Of a stretch of DNA of 64,000 nt, positions 2,729-63,133 are shown in pieces. Under the pieces are notes generated by a model. That model had not been told where the DNA came from. It ran no database searches and saw only the letters and a program-made list of their open reading frames with translations. A program made the translations under genes and the position numbers. The stretch is from positions 32,589 to 96,588 of the forward strand of contig JAUYHP010000008.1 of the NCBI GenBank assembly GCA_030689595.1. Direction: 5' to 3'. Each line of letters starts with the position of its first letter. The stretch's first letter is position 1. Origin of the DNA: a bacterium. Its GTDB lineage: Bacteria; Patescibacteriota; Minisyncoccia; UBA6257; WO2-44-18.

Positions 2729-4068
2729 AGATATTATTTGTCGCTTCGGAATTAACACCGTTAGCCAAGGTTGGGGGGTTGGGCGATGTAATCGGGAGCT
2801 TGCCCAAGGCGCTTAATAAAACTGGCCTCAAATTAGCCGTCATCATGCCAAAGTACGCGGCTATTGATAATAAAAAATGGCGGCTTAAAAAGATTCTCGA
2901 ATTTGTAGAAAGTGGCGAAAAGCTCACGGTTTATAAAACAACCATTCCTAAAAGTTTGGTGCCAGTTTATCTAGTTGAAAATAAAAAATATATAAGTCGC
3001 GGACCAATATATTTCCAAAAAACAGCTTTTGCCGGATCGAAAAGAGAGATAGACCGATTTGTATTTTTTTCAAAGGCTGTTTATAAAATGTTAAAAGAGC
3101 GCTTTATCGATGCCGATATCGTCCATTGTCACGATTGGCACACCGGGGCACTAGTTAGATCATTGAGATTTTCTGACGTGGGGCCACAAACTATATTTAC
3201 AATTCATAATTTGGCCAACCAGGGCAAATCAGGCAGATTTAATGGAATGAGGGAGGGTATAAATAATGCCGATATGGTAACTACGGTAAGCCCAACTTAT
3301 GCCAAAGAAATTACAACCAAAAAATATAGCGTTGGGTTGGAGCAGATTTTGAGGAAAAGAGCGCGACAGGGCAAGCTCGTTGGCATTATTAACGGCATAG
3401 ACATAGGATTTTTTGACCCACAAAAGGATAATATGATAGATCACAAATATTCTTCTTCAACACTTGCTAGAAAAAACAAAAATAAAATCACTCTACAAAA
3501 GATCAGCAAATTAAAAGTAGACCATAAGGCCCCGATTTTTGGGTTGGTATCCCGCCTAACAGCACAAAAGGGCATCATGCTAATCCCGCCGATTGTTAGC
3601 GAGCACGTCGAAAAGCATAATGCTCAGTTTGTGTTTTTAGGAACCGGTTCGAAATCCCATGAGGAAAAATTACTAGAGTTGGCCAAAAGATATCCTCAAA
3701 ATGTATCGACGAATATTCTGTTTGATGAGGTCATGGCACATAAAATTTATGCTGGCTGCGATTTTTTTCTTATGCCTTCACGTTTTGAGCCAAGCGGCTT
3801 AGGCCAGATGATTTCAATGCGTTATGGTACTCCGCCAATAGTTCGAGTTACTGGTGGCTTGAAAGATACTGTCAGACATTTGGAGACGGGCTTTATGTTC
3901 CAAAAGGAATCAGCAGCAGCGCTAAAAAAAGCGACCGAAGCTGCGATTGCTATTTTAAGAGACGAGAAACTGTATCGGCAGATGCAGCGGCGTTGCATGA
4001 AGGAAGATTTTAGTTGGGACAAATCAGCAGCTAAATATAAAGAGATTTATCAAAAGATGTTAAAATGA
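2719..4068 (+). CDS. glgA: Glycogen synthase
   Basis: Canonical N-terminus MKILFVASELTPLAKVGGLGDV, with C-terminal FLMPSRFEPSGLGQM and VTGGLKDTV. The start overlaps the previous gene by 10 nt. Confidence 0.8.
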   Translation: MAMKILFVASELTPLAKVGGLGDVIGSLPKALNKTGLKLAVIMPKYAAIDNKKWRLKKILEFVESGEKLTVYKTTIPKSLVPVYLVENKKYISRGPIYFQKTAFAGSKREIDRFVFFSKAVYKMLKERFIDADIVHCHDWHTGALVRSLRFSDVGPQTIFTIHNLANQGKSGRFNGMREGINNADMVTTVSPTYAKEITTKKYSVGLEQILRKRARQGKLVGIINGIDIGFFDPQKDNMIDHKYSSSTLARKNKNKITLQKISKLKVDHKAPIFGLVSRLTAQKGIMLIPPIVSEHVEKHNAQFVFLGTGSKSHEEKLLELAKRYPQNVSTNILFDEVMAHKIYAGCDFFLMPSRFEPSGLGQMISMRYGTPPIVRVTGGLKDTVRHLETGFMFQKESAAALKKATEAAIAILRDEKLYRQMQRRCMKEDFSWDKSAAKYKEIYQKMLK

Positions 4069-4074
4069 TTAATA

Positions 4075-5112
4075 ATGAAGCTTAAAGATCAAAAATCCGA
4101 ATTGCGCAAAGACATAGTTTCTGGCGAATGGGTTCTTGTGGCCGCTGGTAGAGCCAAGAGGCCTCAGGTCAAAAAAGGTGTCGTAGTAAAGGAATCTAAA
4201 AAGGGGTGCCCTTTTGAAAACCCGCAAGCTAAAGGCCAAAATGGGGATCCTTTATTTTGGTTGCCACGACCAAGTGGAGCGAAGACACAAGCCAAAAAAA
4301 CTCTTAAAGATTGGTTTGTGCAAGCTATCCCCAATAAATACCCGGCCGTATTTAATCACCCCACCGAGAGTTGCCCAGAGATATCACCCCAGCACATGGC
4401 GTCGTCAATTGATGGCTATGGGTCTCATGAGGTTGTGATTACCCGAGATCACGATCGCAGTATTGGCAAAATGAATACAGCTGAAGCCCAGTTAGTTATC
4501 GAAACTTATGTGGCCAGATATAGAGCAATCAGCCAAGATACCTGTACTCGTTATGTACATATTTTTCATAATCATAAACGTGAAGCGGGGGCGTCCATTA
4601 TGCATCCACATTCACAAATTATTTCATTTCCCATAGTGCCGCCCGATATCAACCACAGCATAGAGGGATCGAGGCAGTATTTCAAAAAACATAAATCTTG
4701 CGTGCATTGCGCCATGATGGCCTGGGAGAGATCACAAAAAAAACGAATTGTGGCTGAAAACAGAGATTTTATTGCTGTAGCGCCCTATGCGTCTCGTGTT
4801 TCTTTTGAAGTGCGCATATATCCCAGAAAACACGGAGCTCATTTTGAGCGCATATCTAATGCGCAGAAATTTTCTTTGGCAGAGATGATGTCTTGGGTTT
4901 TTGGGTCGCTCCTTAAAGAGCTAAATGATCCAGCCTATAACTTTTTTATTCACACCACACCGGTAGCTGATGGGGCTTCCGATCACTATCATTGGCACAT
5001 TGAGATTTTGCCGGCGATTGGTCACTTAGCTGGGCTGGAATTAGGTACTGGGATTGATGTTGCCACCTTCCCGCCAGAAGAAGTAGCCTCACTGCTTAAG
5101 AAGAGAATATAA
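4075..5112 (+). CDS. GalT-family (HIT superfamily) hexose-1-phosphate nucleotidyltransferase
   Basis: A CPF..Q zinc knuckle near the N-terminus, the HPHSQI (HxHxQ) active-site motif and a second HYHWHIE half-site. Its position beside glgA suggests a sugar-nucleotide salvage or phosphorylase role. Confidence 0.6.
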   Translation: MKLKDQKSELRKDIVSGEWVLVAAGRAKRPQVKKGVVVKESKKGCPFENPQAKGQNGDPLFWLPRPSGAKTQAKKTLKDWFVQAIPNKYPAVFNHPTESCPEISPQHMASSIDGYGSHEVVITRDHDRSIGKMNTAEAQLVIETYVARYRAISQDTCTRYVHIFHNHKREAGASIMHPHSQIISFPIVPPDINHSIEGSRQYFKKHKSCVHCAMMAWERSQKKRIVAENRDFIAVAPYASRVSFEVRIYPRKHGAHFERISNAQKFSLAEMMSWVFGSLLKELNDPAYNFFIHTTPVADGASDHYHWHIEILPAIGHLAGLELGTGIDVATFPPEEVASLLKKRI

Positions 5113-29084: not shown

Positions 29085-29969
29085 TCAATCCTGCACAATA
29101 ACTTTGGTGCCGACATCAGCCCAGGCATAAAGCTCCTTAGCTTTTGATGGAATAAGATTTACGCAGCCATTGGAGGAGGGCTTACCAAAATTTTGGTGCC
29201 AATATGTGCCGTGTATTACCGCGCCTTGACTAGTGAAATATAAATTCCAAGGCACGCCCGGAAGATCGTAATATTTTTCACTTATACCAGGTATCGGACC
29301 TTGCATATAACGACTGGGTGTTTTTTTAAAAACTGTAAAAATACCTCGTGGCGTAGGCGTGAGCTCTAGTCCCGTCGAGATGGATTCCTCTATAAATAGC
29401 TCATCACCATCATAAGCATAAAGTTTTTGCTCCAATCGGCTCACTATTATTTTTTTATTAGTTTTATCTGATCTAGCCGTTAAATTTTGCACACCTTCAT
29501 CAAGTAGAGCGATGACATAATCAGCTGCCACATACCAATCATCTTCTATGCGTTCAGGGTAGCGAATCCATTCATCAAAAACTATTTTATACCAAACTCG
29601 ACCGTCTCGCTCAACTTGGCCGCCAACTTTCAAGACAGCACCGATTCTCAATCGGGCTATTTTTTCATAATCTTCTCCCGGCCCAGATCTTACATTCAAA
29701 CAAGTGCCCACAAAATAAGCATCGCAACTATCAACCACCTCGATATATTCAAAAAGGACTTTTTCAATCGGAAGGATAATTTCCTCTCCACCACTTTCGG
29801 AGGCAATAACCACCGCCTCCTTACTCTGTAAATATGGATTAGTAATTGGTGAATTGGCTATAAACCAATTGGCTTGCAATATCACTATCGCCAACACTAT
29901 CACTAGCGCAATAAGTGCTCCAACCAATATCCCTACAACTTTTTTATGATACCCCAACGGCACGTGCAT
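29085..29969 (-). CDS. L,D-transpeptidase (YkuD) with N-terminal TM helix and SH3-like region
   Basis: HGTYWHQNFGKPSSNGCVNL matches the catalytic His/Cys signature. Confidence 0.75.
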   Translation of the reverse strand: MHVPLGYHKKVVGILVGALIALVIVLAIVILQANWFIANSPITNPYLQSKEAVVIASESGGEEIILPIEKVLFEYIEVVDSCDAYFVGTCLNVRSGPGEDYEKIARLRIGAVLKVGGQVERDGRVWYKIVFDEWIRYPERIEDDWYVAADYVIALLDEGVQNLTARSDKTNKKIIVSRLEQKLYAYDGDELFIEESISTGLELTPTPRGIFTVFKKTPSRYMQGPIPGISEKYYDLPGVPWNLYFTSQGAVIHGTYWHQNFGKPSSNGCVNLIPSKAKELYAWADVGTKVIVQD

Positions 29970-30005: not shown

Positions 30006-30041
30006 CAACATTCTCACATTCTCGAGAATATGAGGTTGAGA
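30006..30041. repeat. Degenerate copy of the 36-bp palindromic element, followed by a second 18-bp palindrome (GTTGAGAGATCTCTCAAC)
   Basis: CAACATTCTCACATTCTCGAGAATaTGAGgtTGaG; the left arm is intact, and the right arm has about four mismatches relative to the copies at 60843 and 62971. Confidence 0.7.
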
Positions 30042-35934: not shown

Positions 35935-36090
35935 CGAACGATTCCAAGGAGCAAAGGTTCCCAAAGGATTCAGAAACCAAGGTCCTAAGGATCGAAGCTA
36001 CTTGCGGACGGCCGCGAACCGTTCGCCTTCCACCCAGTCGCGTCGCGTTGCGACGCTCCGAAATTTGGCGAAAACGGCGATTATATTTTT

Positions 36091-36164
36091 TGGCTGCCGG
36101 GCAGGGACTCGAACCCCGATACCACGCTCCAGAGGCGTGTGTCCTACCGTTAGACGACCCGGCA
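36091..36164 (-). tRNA. tRNA-Gln (anticodon CUG)
   Basis: The minus-strand sequence TGCCGGGTCGTCTAACGGTAGGACACACGCCTCTGGAGCGTGGTATCGGGGTTCGAGTCCCTGCCCGGCAGCCA folds into a 7-bp acceptor stem, a GGTTCGAGTCC T-arm and a CUCUGGA anticodon loop. CCA is encoded. Confidence 0.8.
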
Positions 36165-36226
36165 TCATTAGACTCAATCTTAATGTTATAATACAATTAT
36201 GGCTAGAAGCAAAAGCAAATAATTTT

Positions 36227-36841
36227 ATGCAAAAAGACTATCAACCAGAAAAATTAAAAATTGATAAAGATCTTCCAGGCTTCAGCCTTAAGGGCATCAA
36301 GGAGCATTTTAAACTTTATGAGGGTTATGTCAAAAAAACTAACGAGATCCAAAAGAAAATTGAAGATGCCGATAAGTCAGAGGCCAATGCTGTTTACAGT
36401 TATATCGGCGAATTGAAGCGCGAAGAAGTCTTTGCCATAAACGGCATTAAACTTCATGAAATTTATTTTGATCACCTTGGCGGCGATGGAAAGCCAAGTG
36501 GTGAGCTAGTAAAAATGATCGAAAGAGATTTTGGCTCGGTTGATAAATGGCGCGAAGATATGATCGCCACCGGCTTAAGTGCTCGTGGTTGGGCTATAAT
36601 GGCCTACGACCTTAAAGATAGCCAGCTCCATAATTATGGAGCTGATGCCCAAAACATTGGCGCAGTCTGGGGCGCTATTCCTATTATAGCCCTGGATGTT
36701 TATGAGCACGCTTATTTTATGGATTATGGAACCGATCGAAAATCTTATGTTAATGCCTTTTTTGAAAATCTGGATTGGAGCGTCGCCAATGCCATGATGA
36801 CTAAATATGTCACGCCATGGGAAAAGACAAAGAACCAGTAA
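36227..36841 (+). CDS. sodA: Fe/Mn superoxide dismutase
   Basis: LDVYEHAYFMDYG (the D-x-W/Y-E-H-A-Y motif) and the conserved His ligands (EHF..., LHEIYF). The start is taken at MQKDY; the longer upstream frame overlaps the tRNA. Confidence 0.8.
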   Translation: MQKDYQPEKLKIDKDLPGFSLKGIKEHFKLYEGYVKKTNEIQKKIEDADKSEANAVYSYIGELKREEVFAINGIKLHEIYFDHLGGDGKPSGELVKMIERDFGSVDKWREDMIATGLSARGWAIMAYDLKDSQLHNYGADAQNIGAVWGAIPIIALDVYEHAYFMDYGTDRKSYVNAFFENLDWSVANAMMTKYVTPWEKTKNQ

Positions 36842-56842: not shown

Positions 56843-56903
56843 AGCGCTGCTTTCACATGTGAAAGCAGCGCTGCTTGACGTATTGATGGGTTATTGTTAT
56901 CAT
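56843..56903 (+). promoter_or_regulatory. 30-bp perfect palindrome abutting a promoter-like -35/-10 pair
   Basis: AGCGCTGCTTTCACATGTGAAAGCAGCGCT (56843-56872), immediately followed by TTGACG, a 17-bp spacer, and TATCAT. Confidence 0.45.
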
Positions 56904-57106: not shown

Positions 57107-57436
57107 ACGCGCAACACCAGAAAAAAGTTTTAAGGCGGCTGGCCATCTTCCCGATGGCAGCTAATGTCTAGTATTTAGGTGATTTTGACGATATTCAGAA
57201 GGCCAAGCTGGTTGCCGCTAAAAAAGGCACTGGTTGTACCGGAAGCGCTATTTTTGCCGCAGGTGTATATGACCATGCGGGTAAACAGATCCATTTCTTT
57301 CGCCGTAGACCGTCTACAATTGCTAAGGATTAAGCTTGATAAATATAGCCGCCATCTTTATTAATAAAGTTGGCGGTTTTTTCTTTTTACGCATTTATCA
57401 ACAGGGTAGGGCTACCAAATATTTGCTCGATATAAT

Positions 57437-57468
57437 AAAGTGAGTGTAAGGGATATTATACTCACTTT
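57437..57468. other. 12-6-12 inverted repeat, candidate tyrosine-recombinase core site
   Basis: AAGTGAGTGTAA-GGGATA-TTATACTCACTT, with 11 of 12 positions matching between arms, 75 bp upstream of the recombinase gene. Confidence 0.4.
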
Positions 57469-57542
57469 GGTATATGTGAGAAAATAATGGTAAAATTGGT
57501 AAAAAGCACTCCCCTAACACTATTTTGTAGAAATTATCAATT

Positions 57543-58514
57543 ATGACAAAAGCTGACAGCGATAATAAAAAAGTTACAATTCTTCCTCATCTAGATGACT
57601 TTTTATTACACCTACAGAGTAATAACTATTCACCCAAAACCGTATATAATTACGAACGCGACCTAATAGTATTTGATGGCTTCCTACAGGATGACCTAGG
57701 CCTAAAAGACTTCCAAGATGCCTCAAAACAGGCTCTAGAACGGTATAAGGCGTATCTGATGTCTACTGACCGTAAAACAGCCCGTAAAACGCAAAATAAG
57801 GCCAATTTAGGGGCCTATTCACGCAACCGACACCTATCAGCCCTCAGGAGCTATCTTAAGTACTTAATTGACGGGGACTATAAGACCCCGATCGTCCCAG
57901 AGAACATAAAGCTAATCAAAACTGACAAAAAGATAGCCAAAGTGGCCGAGCTGCAAGACTTAATCAAATTGATTGAATCCCCCACCAAATTTGAAAAAAA
58001 TCCAATCATAGCTAAGCGCAATCGCGCCATGTTAGAAGTTTTATTTGCTACCGGTTTACGTATTTCCGAATTAGTTAATCTCAAAAAAAATCAGATCGAT
58101 AGGGAAGGCAAGATTTTTGTTTTGGGCAAAGGCAAAAAAGAAAGATTTGTTTATTTGACCCCTAGAGCCATAAAATATTTAAAAATATATTTAACCGAAC
58201 GCAACGATGACTCCCCTCACCTATTCATTTCTTATCGCGGCAAAAGAGCGCCAACGCAAGATCATCATGTGTCGCCAAATTATTTACAAGAAAAAATAAA
58301 AAAATACCGAGAGATTCTTGGCATCAATGTGCCAACTAGCGCCCACTCACTCCGCCACGGCTTTGCCACCTATCTGGCCGAAAAAGGCGCCAGCCCTGCC
58401 GCCATTCAAATACTTTTGGGTCACGAGTCTTTAGACACTACCACTCGCTATGTCCACGCCTCGCATCGCTTCGCCAAAAAAACTCACCAGAAATTTCATC
58501 CACTGAAAGATTAA
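57543..58514 (+). CDS. Tyrosine site-specific recombinase (XerC/XerD/integrase family)
   Basis: C-terminal HSLRHGFAT...LLGHESLDTTTRYVH (R-H-R-Y catalytic set), and N-terminal SAM-like core-binding domain. Confidence 0.85.
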   Translation: MTKADSDNKKVTILPHLDDFLLHLQSNNYSPKTVYNYERDLIVFDGFLQDDLGLKDFQDASKQALERYKAYLMSTDRKTARKTQNKANLGAYSRNRHLSALRSYLKYLIDGDYKTPIVPENIKLIKTDKKIAKVAELQDLIKLIESPTKFEKNPIIAKRNRAMLEVLFATGLRISELVNLKKNQIDREGKIFVLGKGKKERFVYLTPRAIKYLKIYLTERNDDSPHLFISYRGKRAPTQDHHVSPNYLQEKIKKYREILGINVPTSAHSLRHGFATYLAEKGASPAAIQILLGHESLDTTTRYVHASHRFAKKTHQKFHPLKD

Positions 58515-58901: not shown

Positions 58902-59660
58902 TCACTTAGTTAATATCTCGACACCATTTTTAGTTATGGCTACTGTATGTTCAAAATGAGCCGATAAGCTACCATCGGCAGTAGCATAACTGTCGTCGTC
59001 TAGTTGGATAACTTCAGAGGTGCCAATGGCTACCATGGGTTCTATGGCAATCACCAAGCCAGGCTCAATTTTAAAACCACTCCCCTTTTGGCCCTCATTG
59101 AAAACTGATGGCTCCTCGTGCAGTTCTTTGCCAATTCCATGACCAGTTAACCCCTCCGATATATGCAATCCTTGAGCTTTAACATAACTACTTATGGCAT
59201 AGCCAATATCGCCCAACTTATTACCTACTTTTGCGGCGGCCACTCCCCTGTTCAATGCTTCGCGGGTAGTGTCAATTAATTTTTGTGCCTCAATAGAGAT
59301 TTCACCTATCGGTACAGTCCAGGCGGCATCGGCATTATAGCCATCGTAATTAACGCCAAAATCTAATTTCAAGATATCACCTGGCTTCAATAAATGCTCT
59401 CGCGGCACACCATGAACAATAACCTCATTGACTGAAGCGCAGATAGAACAGGGGTACGGCTTGATGGCGCCATAAGGCTGATAATTTAAGAATGACGGTT
59501 TGGCGCCGGCTTTTTCTATAAGATTTCTGGCGATAGTATCTAGATATTTTAATTTCACACCCGGCTTAGCCAATTCCAATATCTGCTTGGCGGTTGCGGC
59601 CAGAATCCTCCCGGCCTTTCTCATAATTTCAATCTCTTCTGGGGTTTTAATATGAATCAT
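58902..59660 (-). CDS. map: Methionine aminopeptidase type I
   Basis: Metal ligands are in the expected context (D...D...H...E...E; HGIGKELHEEP). Confidence 0.9.
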   Translation of the reverse strand: MIHIKTPEEIEIMRKAGRILAATAKQILELAKPGVKLKYLDTIARNLIEKAGAKPSFLNYQPYGAIKPYPCSICASVNEVIVHGVPREHLLKPGDILKLDFGVNYDGYNADAAWTVPIGEISIEAQKLIDTTREALNRGVAAAKVGNKLGDIGYAISSYVKAQGLHISEGLTGHGIGKELHEEPSVFNEGQKGSGFKIEPGLVIAIEPMVAIGTSEVIQLDDDSYATADGSLSAHFEHTVAITKNGVEILTK

Positions 59661-59679: not shown

Positions 59680-60369
59680 CTAAAGTTTTAGTTTCTTGGC
59701 AACAGAAGCATGCACCTTAAACGGCAATGGCATGCCATTAACTTTTGTGATTTTGTAGCCACGCTTTTTTAATCCAGCCAAAATAGGAAAAGTGCGCTCT
59801 TGATACTCTTTTATCCTTGTCTTGAAAACTGATGGATTGTCCACTGTACGCTTGATCAACTTACCACCACATAACGGACAAGTTTTGTGTTTATGTAATG
59901 CATCGCTATATAAAACTGCCGTAGCACACACCGAACAAACCATCCGATATTTATTTCTTTTGATAGAGGCGTTGGGGTCAATATCTAAGAAAACTGGATA
60001 AATGTTCTGCTTGCCATAAGCTTTCTCCAAAACGCGCACTAGGCCAGTATGTTTATTATCGCCAAAGGCCTCAAACATTGTTCGTGGAGAACCACTAAAT
60101 ACAATATTAAATCCGGCCCTAGCTATCTCCTTAGCTTTGTTGGCCGTAACTTTTAATACAAAACTTGGCGTCATTAAAGCGCCGGAGTCAAATAGCTTGC
60201 CCTCACGTTGAATAATTCTATTTTTTTTATTACTCGGGTCGTGGACTAACTGCTCCAAATAGCGGCCAGTATCAAAATGGGTAAAGCCTTTTCGCCCAGT
60301 CAAAAGATTGGCTTGAGTGCCTTTCCCTGCCCCCGGTGGGCCATAAAATATAACTGCTATCTTCGCCAT
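59680..60369 (-). CDS. adk: Adenylate kinase with Zn-lid
   Basis: GPPGAGKGTQA P-loop; lid CSVCATA...CPLCGG. Confidence 0.9.
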   Translation of the reverse strand: MAKIAVIFYGPPGAGKGTQANLLTGRKGFTHFDTGRYLEQLVHDPSNKKNRIIQREGKLFDSGALMTPSFVLKVTANKAKEIARAGFNIVFSGSPRTMFEAFGDNKHTGLVRVLEKAYGKQNIYPVFLDIDPNASIKRNKYRMVCSVCATAVLYSDALHKHKTCPLCGGKLIKRTVDNPSVFKTRIKEYQERTFPILAGLKKRGYKITKVNGMPLPFKVHASVAKKLKL

Positions 60370-60409: not shown

Positions 60410-61417
60410 TTATCCGTGTCGGATCTCCATCACGTCCCCATCCTCAGCGACATATTCTTTGCCTTCGATTCTTAAAAAGCCCTTTTGGCGCGCTTGTGCC
60501 CAAGAACCGACTTCTAATAATTTTTGCCAATTTACAACCTCGGCTCGGATAAACTTCTTTTCAAAATCAGTATGGATAACTCCGGCGGCTTGCGGCGCTT
60601 TACTCCCCTGTCTGATTGTCCAGGCCCTGGTCTCATCTTTGCCAGTAGTGAAGAAGCTTATGAGCCCCAAGATCTCATACGACTTTTTGATTAGGGCCGA
60701 AAGATCTACGGATTGTGATAGGTCAGCAACTATATAATCGGCTCCAGAAGTTTTAATTTTTTCTATTAATTCTGGTGGCACATCGCCTTCTTGGCCATTT
60801 AATAAATACAGCTGTTTTTTAGTGGTCAAAAGGCTAAGACCCAACATTCTCACATTCTCGAGAATGTGAGAATGTTGCCACAAAGGTTCGCCCTTTTCTA
60901 AAAGCGACCTGGTCTCCCGTATGGTCTCTAAATCTTTCTTGGCTTGTTTATCGCCCGTCTTGGCCTCGCCCTCAACTCGCTTTAAAACTTTTTCAACGGT
61001 ATCCAAGTCTTTAAGAGCCAGCTCGGTATTGATTATTTCCATGTCCCTAATTGGATCAACTGAATTTTCTACATGAATAATCTCGCCGCTTTGAAAACAG
61101 CGCAAGACCATGATTATGGCATCAACCTCTCTAATGTGTGATAAAAACTGGTTGCCCAAACCTTCGCCTTTATTGGCCCCCCTAACTAAACCCGCAATGT
61201 CATAGAATTCTACAACCGCAGGGATTTTTTTGGCCGATTGGCTAAGCTCTGCCAATTTATCCACTCGCTCATCAGGCACAGGCACTATGCCGATATTGGG
61301 GTCAATGGTGGCAAATGGATAATTGGCAATATTAATCTCCAAATCTGTTATAGCCTTAAAAAGCGTCGATTTCCCGACGTTTGGCAGCCCGACTATACCG
61401 ATTGAAATATTAGCCAT
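60410..61417 (-). CDS. ychF: Ribosome-binding ATPase YchF, carrying an in-frame 36-bp palindromic insert
   Basis: [15 protein letters not shown]1 motif and a TGS-like C-terminus. Codons [13 protein letters not shown] are encoded exactly by the palindrome at 60843-60878. Confidence 0.85.
60843..60878. repeat. 36-bp perfect palindrome, intragenic copy
   Basis: CAACATTCTCACATTCTCGAGAATGTGAGAATGTTG. Confidence 0.9.
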
Positions 61418-61525: not shown

Positions 61526-62893
61526 TCAAGCTAAATGCTTCGCTTCGAAATGCGGCTTAGCGCGTTCGATAGACACAACGTAAGCAGCTTTGCGAAGATT
61601 TGTATCGAGTTGTTCGGCGCGACTAGTTACTTGCGTGGTAGCCTTATGCAACATATCACTCATAGCTGCCAATACTGCATCTTTGTCGGCCATTGGAACT
61701 CGGTCATCACGAATATTAACATTATGCGCCCATTCGAAATATGACACCACTACGCCACCGGCATTGGCCAAAATATCTGGCACAACAATGACGTTGTGTC
61801 TTTCTAAAATATCGTCAGCACGATTAGTCGTCGGCCCGTTAGCGCCTTCCAAGACAAATTCACAATTATCACCGATCACATCGGCATTGTTCTTATCAAT
61901 CACATTTTCTAAAGCCGCTGGTACAAAAACGTTGCACTTCAATGACATAAACTCCTCATGATTGATGCCAGAGGCATCAGCATAGCCATTAACACTGCGT
62001 AGTGTATTGTTGGGATTGTCATAAACGTATTGCCAAAGCTTATCAACATCAATTCCGCTCGGGCTATGGATAGCTCCATGCTCGTCGGAAATAGCAATAA
62101 CTTTATAACCGGCTTCTACAGCAAACTTGGCAAAATGCGCGCCAACATTGCCGAAGCCCATTACTTTAACCTCGCAACCATTTCTATCTTTGCCATAGAC
62201 ATCCAAAATCTTATTAAGCACTTGCACCAAGCCATAGCCAGTAGCTTCGGTTCGGCCCGGGATGCCGTCCAAATCTTCGCCAATTGGCTTACCAGTAACA
62301 ACTCCGGCAAAGCGAGCATCTTCGCGAGAACGACGCAGCCTAGCATAATACTGGCGGATCCAGTTCATAACCGTAGCATTAGTGCCAATATCAGGTGCTG
62401 GCACATCACGAAATGGCCCCAGAATATTTCTTTCATTCATAGCCTCAACTAAGGCCTCGGTAACCTTTTTGAGTTCTTGCGCGGAAAGTTCACGCGGATT
62501 GACGGCTACGCCGCCCTTGGCGCCACCCCATTTAATACCTAATAGCCAACACTTCAAGCTCATTTCCATAGCGTGGCCTTTCATCATCTCAACATTTACA
62601 GCCGGATGATACCTTAAACCGCCTTTGTGTGGCTTATCAGTGTGCGGCGATCTATGCCAAACTCGCACAGCTCGAAACTCTCTCAAGCTACCATCGTCCA
62701 TACGAACTTCAATATCGGACGCCCATTCCATTTTCACGCTACACAACTTATGTACCAGCCAATCATCTAAGTCTAAGATATTGGCCGCATCTTTAATGCG
62801 ATCAATGATATGATAGACATCGTTGTTTTCTTGAGCCATAGCAGACTCCCATTGCCGCGCCGTAGCCATGCCTGCCGGTAGGTAGTATGGCAT
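61526..62893 (-). CDS. gdhA: NAD(P)-specific glutamate dehydrogenase
   Basis: KWGGAKGGV (the GGxKGG lysine motif) and the GFGNVGAHFA Rossmann motif. The start is possibly an internal M. Confidence 0.85.
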   Translation of the reverse strand: MPYYLPAGMATARQWESAMAQENNDVYHIIDRIKDAANILDLDDWLVHKLCSVKMEWASDIEVRMDDGSLREFRAVRVWHRSPHTDKPHKGGLRYHPAVNVEMMKGHAMEMSLKCWLLGIKWGGAKGGVAVNPRELSAQELKKVTEALVEAMNERNILGPFRDVPAPDIGTNATVMNWIRQYYARLRRSREDARFAGVVTGKPIGEDLDGIPGRTEATGYGLVQVLNKILDVYGKDRNGCEVKVMGFGNVGAHFAKFAVEAGYKVIAISDEHGAIHSPSGIDVDKLWQYVYDNPNNTLRSVNGYADASGINHEEFMSLKCNVFVPAALENVIDKNNADVIGDNCEFVLEGANGPTTNRADDILERHNVIVVPDILANAGGVVVSYFEWAHNVNIRDDRVPMADKDAVLAAMSDMLHKATTQVTSRAEQLDTNLRKAAYVVSIERAKPHFEAKHLA

Positions 62894-62970
62894 AGGCGGG
62901 ACACAATTGAGTTATTTAAATATCAAGCTTCTGCCCTCATTCAATAAAATTAATGGGGGTGCGTCAACCC

Positions 62971-63018
62971 CCCACACAACATTCTCACATTCTCGAGAAT
63001 GTGAGAATGTTGTGTGGG
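62971..63018. repeat. 48-bp perfect palindrome (the 36-bp element extended by 6 bp on each side), preceded by a GGGGGT...ACCCCC hairpin
   Basis: CCCACACAACATTCTCACATTCTCGAGAATGTGAGAATGTTGTGTGGG, in the gdh upstream region. Confidence 0.9.
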
Positions 63019-63133
63019 AAGGCCGACTTGCTCCGTCACCTTAGCTTCGTGAAAGTTCATGGCAGGCCTCTAAGCAAAAATATCGGGGAAATAAAAAGGC
63101 CCCTCCGATGTTAATCAGAGGGGCCTACTCGGT

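Follow-up and report, generated by a model that had tools for sequence, protein, structure and literature searches.

Repressors of the ArsR/SmtB family, such as SmtB, CzrA and HlyU, act at 12-2-12 inverted-repeat operators. Intragenic operators and roadblocks (the cre sites of CcpA, the sites of CodY and PurR) measure 10-18 bp, and DNA uptake sequences are present in thousands of copies. For a further system, the Rickettsia palindromic elements (RPEs), we know of no dedicated binding protein. RPEs are about 100-150 bp long and lie in intergenic DNA as well as in frame within unrelated conserved genes (PMC10969869). Here we examine a 36-bp perfect palindrome located in the coding sequence of ychF, in a 64,000-nucleotide stretch (hereafter the window) of a patescibacterial genome (GenBank assembly GCA_030689595.1, contig JAUYHP010000008.1). 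In our judgement the scales stand about even for the proposal that this palindrome is a protein-recognition site, probably an ArsR/HlyU-like operator, which was established early in the lineage and has been kept symmetric by arm-to-arm correction.

The palindrome, CAACATTCTCACATTCTCGAGAATGTGAGAATGTTG, occupies window positions 60842-60877. The original prediction had recognised it correctly and placed it one base too high, at 60843-60878. Its host gene, ychF (60410-61417, minus strand), encodes a protein of 335 residues with the Pfam domains MMR_HSR1 and YchF-GTPase_C, identical to a protein annotated as redox-regulated ATPase YchF in a metagenome-assembled genome (MAG). The palindrome is read on the minus strand as codons 181-192 (Q181-L192), directly after W180, and its translation involves neither a stop nor a frameshift, as had been predicted. 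Its 32-bp core (60844-60875) has the form (ACATTCTC)2(GAGAATGT)2, in which two direct 8-mers precede their own inverted copies, and consists of four ATTC/GAAT blocks at 8-bp spacing; its ends read (C)AACATTC...GAATGTT(G). Chance and assembly artefact are ruled out by the absence of any match to the 36-bp palindrome in 100 dinucleotide-preserving shuffles and by the occurrence of the same core in MAGs of many independent projects.

This segment had been taken for a lineage-specific insertion of 12 residues, sitting where YchF orthologs are shorter or unrelated. Both parts of this claim fell once the proteins were compared, as the orthologs have the same length and a homologous segment. The 120 best YchF homologs count 328-370 residues and the closest ones (63-80% identical) 330-349, against 335 for the window protein. 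An alignment of 23 sequences gives the window YchF no extra residues at the peptide encoded by the palindrome. The YchF structures of Thermus (PDB 2DBY) and Haemophilus (PDB 1JAL) align across this peptide without a chain gap, and the window protein is, if anything, one residue shorter there. More distant orthologs possess a non-palindromic segment of equal length, of the type xxEILxEPVIKELNLL. The prediction had named one finding that would speak against it, orthologs carrying the segment without the symmetry; literally, this is not what was seen, the close orthologs being symmetric too. Length and alignment nonetheless refute an insertion into the window ychF, and the equal length of the orthologs together with the gapless alignment to the solved structures rules out that a mobile element entered this gene in frame. 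The segment is old and orthologous.

The AlphaFold model of the window YchF is poor overall (mean predicted local distance difference test, pLDDT, of 55), and its use was for this reason restricted to residues 120-230 (pLDDT 70-92). In the model, the palindrome peptide follows two long helices (122-152 and 157-174) and does not lie within the helical insert. It is predicted to form two short helices (183-187 and 189-194), after which comes the strand 201-207 carrying the G4 motif, with pLDDT values of 81-85 for residues 181-200.

The symmetry itself is shared between orthologous genes. A set of ychF DNA sequences was assembled from 80 metagenomic relatives and 11 of the closest database orthologs, 50 of which could be anchored at the homologous 32 nt. 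At these same codons, 16 of the 50 anchored sequences show 0-8 self-mismatches of 32 and the others 14-30, for a random expectation of 24; in ychF genes devoid of the feature, the best 32-nt window found anywhere has 8-14. The palindromic orthologs stay symmetric despite up to 12 differences in 32 from the window core. Among the loci compared (designated L with a number), the symmetry is perfect in L122, with arms TTATTCTAATGTTCTT and AAGAACATTAGAATAA, and extends to 15 of 16 pairs in L121 (CTATTCTCTTATTCGC and ACGAATAAGAGAATAG) and to 14 of 16 pairs in both L119 (TGATTCTGGTATTCTG and CAGAATACCAGAATAC) and L120 (ACATACCAACATACTG and GAGTATGTTGGTATGA). A formal count over 17 sequences detected changes on both sides in 12 of the 16 pairs, amounting to 45 cells, a level reached by none of 500 shuffles. 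Control structures slid by 1-3 columns had only 4-7 pairs changed on both sides.

As the symmetry is centred between two codons, these changes show in the protein as reverse-complement pairs of amino acids. The pair S-R is replaced by P-R, T-G or A-S, H-M by Y-I or D-I, I-N by V-N or I-Y, and L-E by L-K, L-Q, R-A or R-T. The signal can be recovered from proteins only: 25 of 102 YchF orthologs have a ten-residue peptide for which a perfect 30-nt palindrome could code (null 5e-5 per window), and 42 of the 102 score at least 13/15 (null 2%). Palindromic and decayed forms of ychF are interspersed in a rough neighbour-joining tree, which, read as it stands, would make the palindrome an old feature that was lost repeatedly. 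A separate observation concerns locus L084, where an intergenic variant (positions 4046-4077, TTATTCCAATGTTCTCAAGAATATTGGAATAA) is of a type otherwise met inside ychF; the ychF of L084 itself is not palindromic.

The arms of ychF and those intergenic arms whose sequence the search had not fixed are conserved in a similar way position by position (r = 0.66). Both sets conserve G3-A4-A5 and G11-A12-A13-T14, within the GAA(T) blocks of arm positions 3-6 and 11-14, and positions 1, 7, 9 and 15 are variable in both. This common pattern supports the recognition of both kinds of site by one factor through the four ATTC/GAAT blocks. In the two genomes where it could be checked, the ychF copy has its equal among the intergenic copies of its own genome, namely in the window (36/36) and in L117 (shared variant ACATTCCAACATTCT). 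Canonical and compensated variants coexist within the single loci L003, L020 and L029, and the genome of L115 carries different variants in ychF and in a glycosyltransferase gene. Such coexistence indicates that symmetry is kept site by site, and it rules out genome-specific drift in specificity as the cause of the covariation.

Beyond ychF, the core is widespread in the Candidate Phyla Radiation (CPR). A search with the exact 19-mer half-site, using one genome per species, retrieved 31 loci with unrelated flanks from about 20 CPR MAGs, which stem from independent studies. These MAGs are labelled Parcubacteria, Saccharibacteria, Moranbacteria, Nomurabacteria, Staskawiczbacteria or Paceibacterota, a few of the contigs being probably mis-binned. 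The copies have in common the 32-bp core alone, often with one or two additional bases, and the flanks of 50 copies are unrelated. Allowing at most 6 mismatches brings the count to 53 sites in the 31 loci, the ychF loci L112-L118 and the window. A single MAG has at least 6 exact half-site matches in about 0.9 Mb. Two palindromes stand only 54 bp apart at L022:5046-5131. No exact match to the palindrome was found in a collection of 2.9 million viral contigs, and a phage origin was rejected on this ground.

Most sites are placed between genes in tandem or divergent arrangement. Both orientations with respect to the genes are seen, and 38% of the sites adjoin a -10-like box, compared with 17% in the background. 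The genes downstream are heterogeneous and rich in stress and repair functions. They encode MsrA, an HhH-GPD glycosylase, a DNA-alkylation repair protein, diacylglycerol kinase, a PLD-type enzyme, a YgjP-like metallopeptidase, a metallophosphoesterase, HAD and PHP hydrolases and tyrosyl-tRNA synthetase, as well as glutamate dehydrogenase and a YkuD enzyme in the window. Nudix-type, heavy-metal P-type ATPase and LepA genes complete the list, as judged by reading their sequences.

One gene family points to a candidate reader of these sites. Eleven of the 31 palindrome loci encode one family of winged-helix proteins of 88-109 residues, identified by tblastn and hmmsearch, which matches the Pfam families HTH_5, MarR, HTH_24 and HVO_A0114 and has no catalytic domain. 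Its nearest solved relatives are HlyU (PDB 4k2e, E = 3e-6) and other ArsR/SmtB proteins. About 200 database relatives exist, all uncharacterised, and those whose source is named come from Staskawiczbacteria or Patescibacteria. The palindrome ends 14-75 bp before the start codon of the winged-helix gene in 10 of the 11 loci, and is frequently followed directly by TG-TATAAT. In 9 of the 10 loci where site and regulator are adjacent, 0-13 nt separate the end of the site from a TATAAT-like box, which a consensus promoter scan did not recognise as part of a promoter. In most of these loci a second palindrome is found 2-32 bp past the stop codon of the winged-helix gene, before a different gene in each genome. 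By analogy with known regulators, this arrangement, a palindrome before the start and another after the stop, is the one commonly found where a repressor controls its own gene through an operator.

A diverged homolog of the family (L121:1400-1760, 93 residues, hmmsearch E = 1e-12) was observed in one of the ychF loci. A 12-2-12 palindrome, AAGAATCATTCG TG CGAATGATTCTT, lies before its gene and a half-site after it. The centre of this 12-2-12 palindrome, ATTCG..CGAAT, matches the centre of the ychF palindrome of the same genome.

From this body of evidence we infer binding, a regulatory effect and a cause for the covariation, in the following scheme. A small winged-helix protein of the ArsR/HlyU type would be the most likely reader of the 32-bp CPR site. 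In ychF, the site would overlie a short helical linker that already existed between the helical domain and the G4 strand, and would have kept to these codons from a time before a large group of Parcubacteria-type lineages diverged, the constraint on the DNA dictating the peptide H-S-x-I-L-E-N-V-R-M. The protein, probably as two dimers, may bind inside ychF and modulate transcription through this gene and into adk-map, as a roadblock or internal operator. Together with the ychF site, promoter-proximal copies could form a loose regulon, with gdh and the YkuD gene in the window and msrA, DNA-repair, Nudix and P-type ATPase genes elsewhere. Symmetric recognition would fix the ATTC/GAAT blocks, and the positions in between would be free to change as compensated pairs. 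Since a protein needs no compensated changes at positions that it does not contact, and since variants coexist, the covariation calls for a second process. Arm-to-arm correction, through replication template switching at quasi-palindromes, may thus keep each site symmetric. Template switching is the simplest known process that would yield symmetry site by site; alternatively, function may require a hairpin or cruciform to be extruded, and our observations cannot separate the two.

A number of points weigh against an operator. For recognition, a transcription factor could do with much less than a perfect 32-bp match. Five of the sites are flanked by convergent genes, which is no place for a promoter, and the enrichment in -10-like boxes is modest overall. 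An operator in the middle of ychF is putative and its target only proposed. Neither the window, 64 kb of a contig listed at 184 kb (tblastn, family hidden Markov model, all open reading frames of at least 50 residues), nor the ychF loci L112-L120 and L122 contain a homolog of the winged-helix gene. Finally, the new copies in unrelated reading frames (tspO, Wzy_C, PMT_2 and a second place in ychF) resemble the products of a copy-and-paste process more than the usual gain and loss of binding sites.

These in-frame copies deserve closer attention. In a locus labelled Saccharibacteria (L005), the canonical palindrome is in frame in TspO, in the loop after the second transmembrane helix. Among anchored CPR homologs of TspO, 42 of 113 display a fully reverse-complement-compatible peptide at the position of the palindrome (null 2e-4), and their repertoire of variants is that of YchF (HSNILENVRM, HPYILENVRM, HSLIRANERM, HSNILQNVGM and others). 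In two CPR TspO proteins, P0244 and P0245, 12 residues are inserted precisely in the middle of the peptide that the palindrome encodes (HSSI-FLKSEQARLPAY-GGNERM), which looks as though something had inserted at the tip of the hairpin. The canonical palindrome occurs in a different frame inside a Wzy_C/O-antigen-ligase-like gene in L016. At L115:12159-12190, the variant CTATTCTAATATTCTTAAGAACATTAGAATAG is translated in frame, as YSNVLKNIRI, within a loop of a PMT_2 glycosyltransferase; three orthologs (L113, L120, L122) lack it, for a length difference of only about 2 residues. In the YchF protein P0075 of L117, the usual position has no symmetry, and a perfect variant palindrome is located 57 codons downstream, with a gain of 8 residues and a near-identical copy in nearby intergenic DNA. 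As far as these sequences tell, new copies do arise in reading frames, mostly with little change in length. The general idea of in-frame copies in genes, put forward in the original prediction, is thereby borne out for tspO, the Wzy_C-like gene, PMT_2 and the second ychF position. The RPE-like behaviour that it proposed stands in so far as copies are both intergenic and in frame within unrelated genes, but there is no insertion here and the palindrome is not of the RPE family.

The palindrome could, on this evidence, be a mobile or copied-and-pasted short repeat, similar to RPEs or to repetitive extragenic palindromic (REP) units with their associated transposase (RAYT), which is tolerated in reading frames and for which the winged-helix gene, flanked by two copies, would be part of the machinery and not a host regulator. 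We regard this as unlikely. It would account for in-frame copies in four or more unrelated gene families, YchF having them at two places, for the 8 residues added in P0075 and for the absence of the glycosyltransferase copy from orthologs. It would also explain why most sites are nearer to a perfect 32-mer than protein recognition demands and why copies within one genome have a genome-specific variant in common, as in L117; and a gene flanked by repeats that it may recognise recalls REP-RAYT units. However, the window ychF shows no change in length, the copies have nothing in common beyond the 32-36-bp core, and no target-site duplication was seen. The copies in ychF and in tspO are old ones shared among orthologs, and selfish repeats, which evolve fast, would not be expected to keep an identical core in Saccharibacteria-, Parcubacteria- and Moranbacteria-type genomes. 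No catalytic domain is present in the winged-helix protein, and no transposase-like gene was seen beside the repeats, although no screen for Y1 transposases was made. The lack of a match in the 2.9 million viral contigs and the presence of only 3 copies in 64 kb argue in the same direction.

An RNA element appears improbable. The 16-bp hairpin in the mRNA would then act as a processing, stability or pausing signal, for instance as an RNase III site. The strong compensatory covariation would be expected from such a hairpin, the predicted stem is very stable (z = -5.1 for 161 nt of ychF mRNA around the palindrome), and some upstream copies located 14-17 nt before a start codon could be transcribed. 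Among mismatched pairs on the sense strand, however, 4 are G-U and 12 are A-C, 6 of the latter within the 14 core pairs, and G-U is rare overall (4 of 272 cells). The lack of any excess of G-U over A-C points to Watson-Crick symmetry at the level of DNA and not to an RNA stem. The copy before the winged-helix gene is usually immediately upstream of the TATAAT-like box and would not be transcribed from that promoter, and sites are found in both orientations and between convergent genes. The palindrome has no match to an Rfam family, the whole window yielding a single tRNA at gathering thresholds.

Template switching might alternatively maintain a functionless quasi-palindrome that perpetuates itself, mutations being copied to the other arm or reverted and the symmetry being neutral. 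Template switching has been documented to generate perfect stems and, in a single step, substitutions that look compensatory (PMC8794818). Intergenic sites that were not ascertained by an exact match present 12 compensated and 19 uncompensated changed pairs, and in many lineages the palindrome of ychF or tspO has degenerated, both in agreement with neutrality. Such a process nevertheless leaves unexplained the fixed ATTC/GAAT blocks amid variable positions, the identity over 36 bp to a consensus spread through the superphylum at 70-80% protein divergence, and the tight linkage to the winged-helix gene, and we consider it improbable. The idea that HSxILENVRM is a functional protein motif, with DNA symmetry as its by-product, draws on the occurrence of one peptide in both YchF and TspO and is effectively refuted by identical untranslated DNA in intergenic regions, by the other reading frame used in L016 and by reverse-complement paired changes (S-R to P-R, T-G or A-S; H-M to Y-I or D-I) that protein constraint does not predict.

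The window holds two further copies of the palindrome, and a scan for the block pattern over its 64 kb found no site besides these three. Both had been described as identical and non-coding; the identity holds for the one at 62977-63012, which matches the ychF copy over 36/36 bp, but not for the one at 30006-30041, whose right arm is degenerate. The former is the central 36 bp of a 48-bp perfect palindrome (62971-63018) situated 78 bp upstream of the start of the glutamate dehydrogenase gene gdh (61526-62893, minus strand). The latter has a perfect left arm and 6 mismatches of 18 in the right arm, 4 of them in the 32-bp core, and is located 37 bp upstream of the start of a gene for a YkuD-type L,D-transpeptidase (29085-29969, minus strand). 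Consensus promoter scans gave counts no higher than in shuffles. Two hairpins bracket the 48-bp palindrome within the gdh upstream region: a short G+C-rich one (62955-62972) abuts it on the gdh side, and a strong terminator-like one (63097-63126, 13 pairs and a T-run) lies 80 bp away on the opposite side. Directly downstream of ychF on the same strand are adk (59680-60369, minus) and then map (58902-59660, minus), which may be transcribed together with it and so be exposed to any block of transcription within ychF; the order ychF-adk-map recurs in locus L119.

Other palindromes were noticed in the window. A 30-bp perfect palindrome (56843-56872, arms AGCGCTGCTTTCACA and TGTGAAAGCAGCGCT), unrelated to the one in ychF, is found in a stretch of about 800 bp poor in open reading frames, and the reading frame downstream of it (57543-58514) resembles a XerC/D-like tyrosine recombinase; inverted repeats at 57349-57376 and 57430-57475 are closer to that frame. 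A 22-bp perfect palindrome, CAGCTCCATAATTATGGAGCTG, lies at 36623-36644 in frame (QLHNYGA) in what looks like an Fe/Mn superoxide dismutase gene, this assignment and that of the recombinase resting on sequence reading alone. About 0.015 palindromes of this length are expected by chance in 64 kb, and this one may be another instance of a palindrome within coding sequence. The superoxide dismutase-like frame, as delimited mechanically (36002-36841), begins upstream of tRNA-Gln(CTG) (36091-36164, opposite strand) and runs across it; the true start must be further downstream.

To our knowledge, almost nothing is known about gene regulation in CPR bacteria, nearly all of them being uncultured. The present study offers a concrete pair, one small winged-helix family and one long, highly conserved DNA site, along with a first list of candidate targets: ychF, tspO, gdh, msrA, genes for base-excision and alkylation repair, Nudix and P-type ATPase genes and envelope enzymes. 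It also provides an unusually clear example of a DNA signal dictating protein sequence, over ten codons in two unrelated conserved proteins that evolve in reverse-complement pairs. As a more tentative possibility, palindromes of about 32 bp found CPR-wide in promoters and in conserved reading frames (ychF, tspO, membrane glycosyltransferases), whose co-evolving arms would have preserved symmetry over very long times and forced paired amino-acid changes, and onto which a dedicated winged-helix protein would dock, might constitute a regulatory or semi-selfish code superimposed on the protein code. The system could be used as a natural experiment on how far the sequence of a protein linker or loop can yield to a nucleic-acid constraint, and for testing the template-switch model of how hairpins are maintained. 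It is in addition a warning for annotation and phylogenetics: the peptide shared by YchF and TspO is not protein homology.

How the ychF palindrome relates to described systems can now be specified. REP units are tied to a Y1 transposase (RAYT, IS200/IS605-like). They are extragenic, usually number hundreds per genome and bear a GTAG or CGTC tag (PMC3733652). An imperfect palindrome of 20-40 bp and a gene flanked by its own repeats are reminiscent of the 32-bp core and its winged-helix gene; here, in contrast, the core ends have no GTAG/CGTC tag, the ychF copy is genic and the flanked gene encodes a plain winged-helix protein. TIGR arrays of CPR bacteria contain stem-loops embedded in tas genes, and their tigRNA units need two spacers, with box C/D motifs between the stems (bioRxiv 10.64898/2026.09.09.750476). 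Palindromic stems in frame in a CPR coding sequence are a point of likeness, whereas the arms abut here without a spacer (0-4-nt loop) and ychF, tspO and the other hosts do not belong to tas. Inspection of the core by eye, with no formal search for motifs, revealed no box C/D consensus; a TIGR-Tas stem-loop guide was discarded on these two counts, spacers and boxes.

The hairpins attributed to template switching also have perfect stems kept by apparent compensatory substitutions (Monttinen and Loytynoja 2022, PMC8794818). They have been described for RNA genes, whereas the palindrome of ychF is coding DNA with paired amino-acid changes and with conserved blocks, the latter suggesting that binding constrains it as well. 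Intragenic operators and uptake sequences resemble it as DNA signals that overlie a reading frame and constrain the protein, although such operators are not known to keep to a single codon position through deep lineages. We know of no parS, dif, Ter, NrdR, Fur, LexA or CIRCE site that fits the four-block ATTC/GAAT pattern. A literature search with the sequence returned only unrelated short hairpin RNA constructs, and one on CPR regulons or palindromes nothing relevant. In the literature available to us we could find no counterpart for a site of this size and perfection, for its conservation through the superphylum or for its residence on fixed codons with paired amino-acid covariation.

With RPEs, the palindrome shares intergenic copies and in-frame copies in unrelated genes (ychF, tspO, Wzy_C-like, PMT_2). 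It differs in consisting of a 32-36-bp unit only, where an RPE has a family-specific consensus over its full length, and in adding nothing to the window YchF (335 residues, against 330-349 in the closest homologs), where an RPE lengthens its host protein, P0075 in L117 alone having gained residues. Moreover, RPEs are genus-specific to the Rickettsia lineage, whereas the present core is found in Patescibacteria/CPR MAGs across CPR phyla. The resemblance is one of behaviour only, and the palindrome is not a member of the RPE family.

The ArsR/SmtB systems come nearer. A winged-helix gene of about 90-110 residues with a palindrome before it, near a putative promoter, and further copies before other genes, a site long enough for two dimers, and a diverged homolog in L121 with a textbook 12-2-12 site are all features in common, the gene of this family being present at 11 of the 31 loci, in 10 cases no more than 75 bp from a site, and absent from the window. 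What sets the CPR sites apart is a near-perfect 32-bp palindrome of four blocks with 8-bp periodicity, spread through a superphylum and placed in frame in conserved genes. As far as can be judged from sequence, an ArsR/SmtB-type repressor with a long inverted-repeat operator is the closest mechanistic match.

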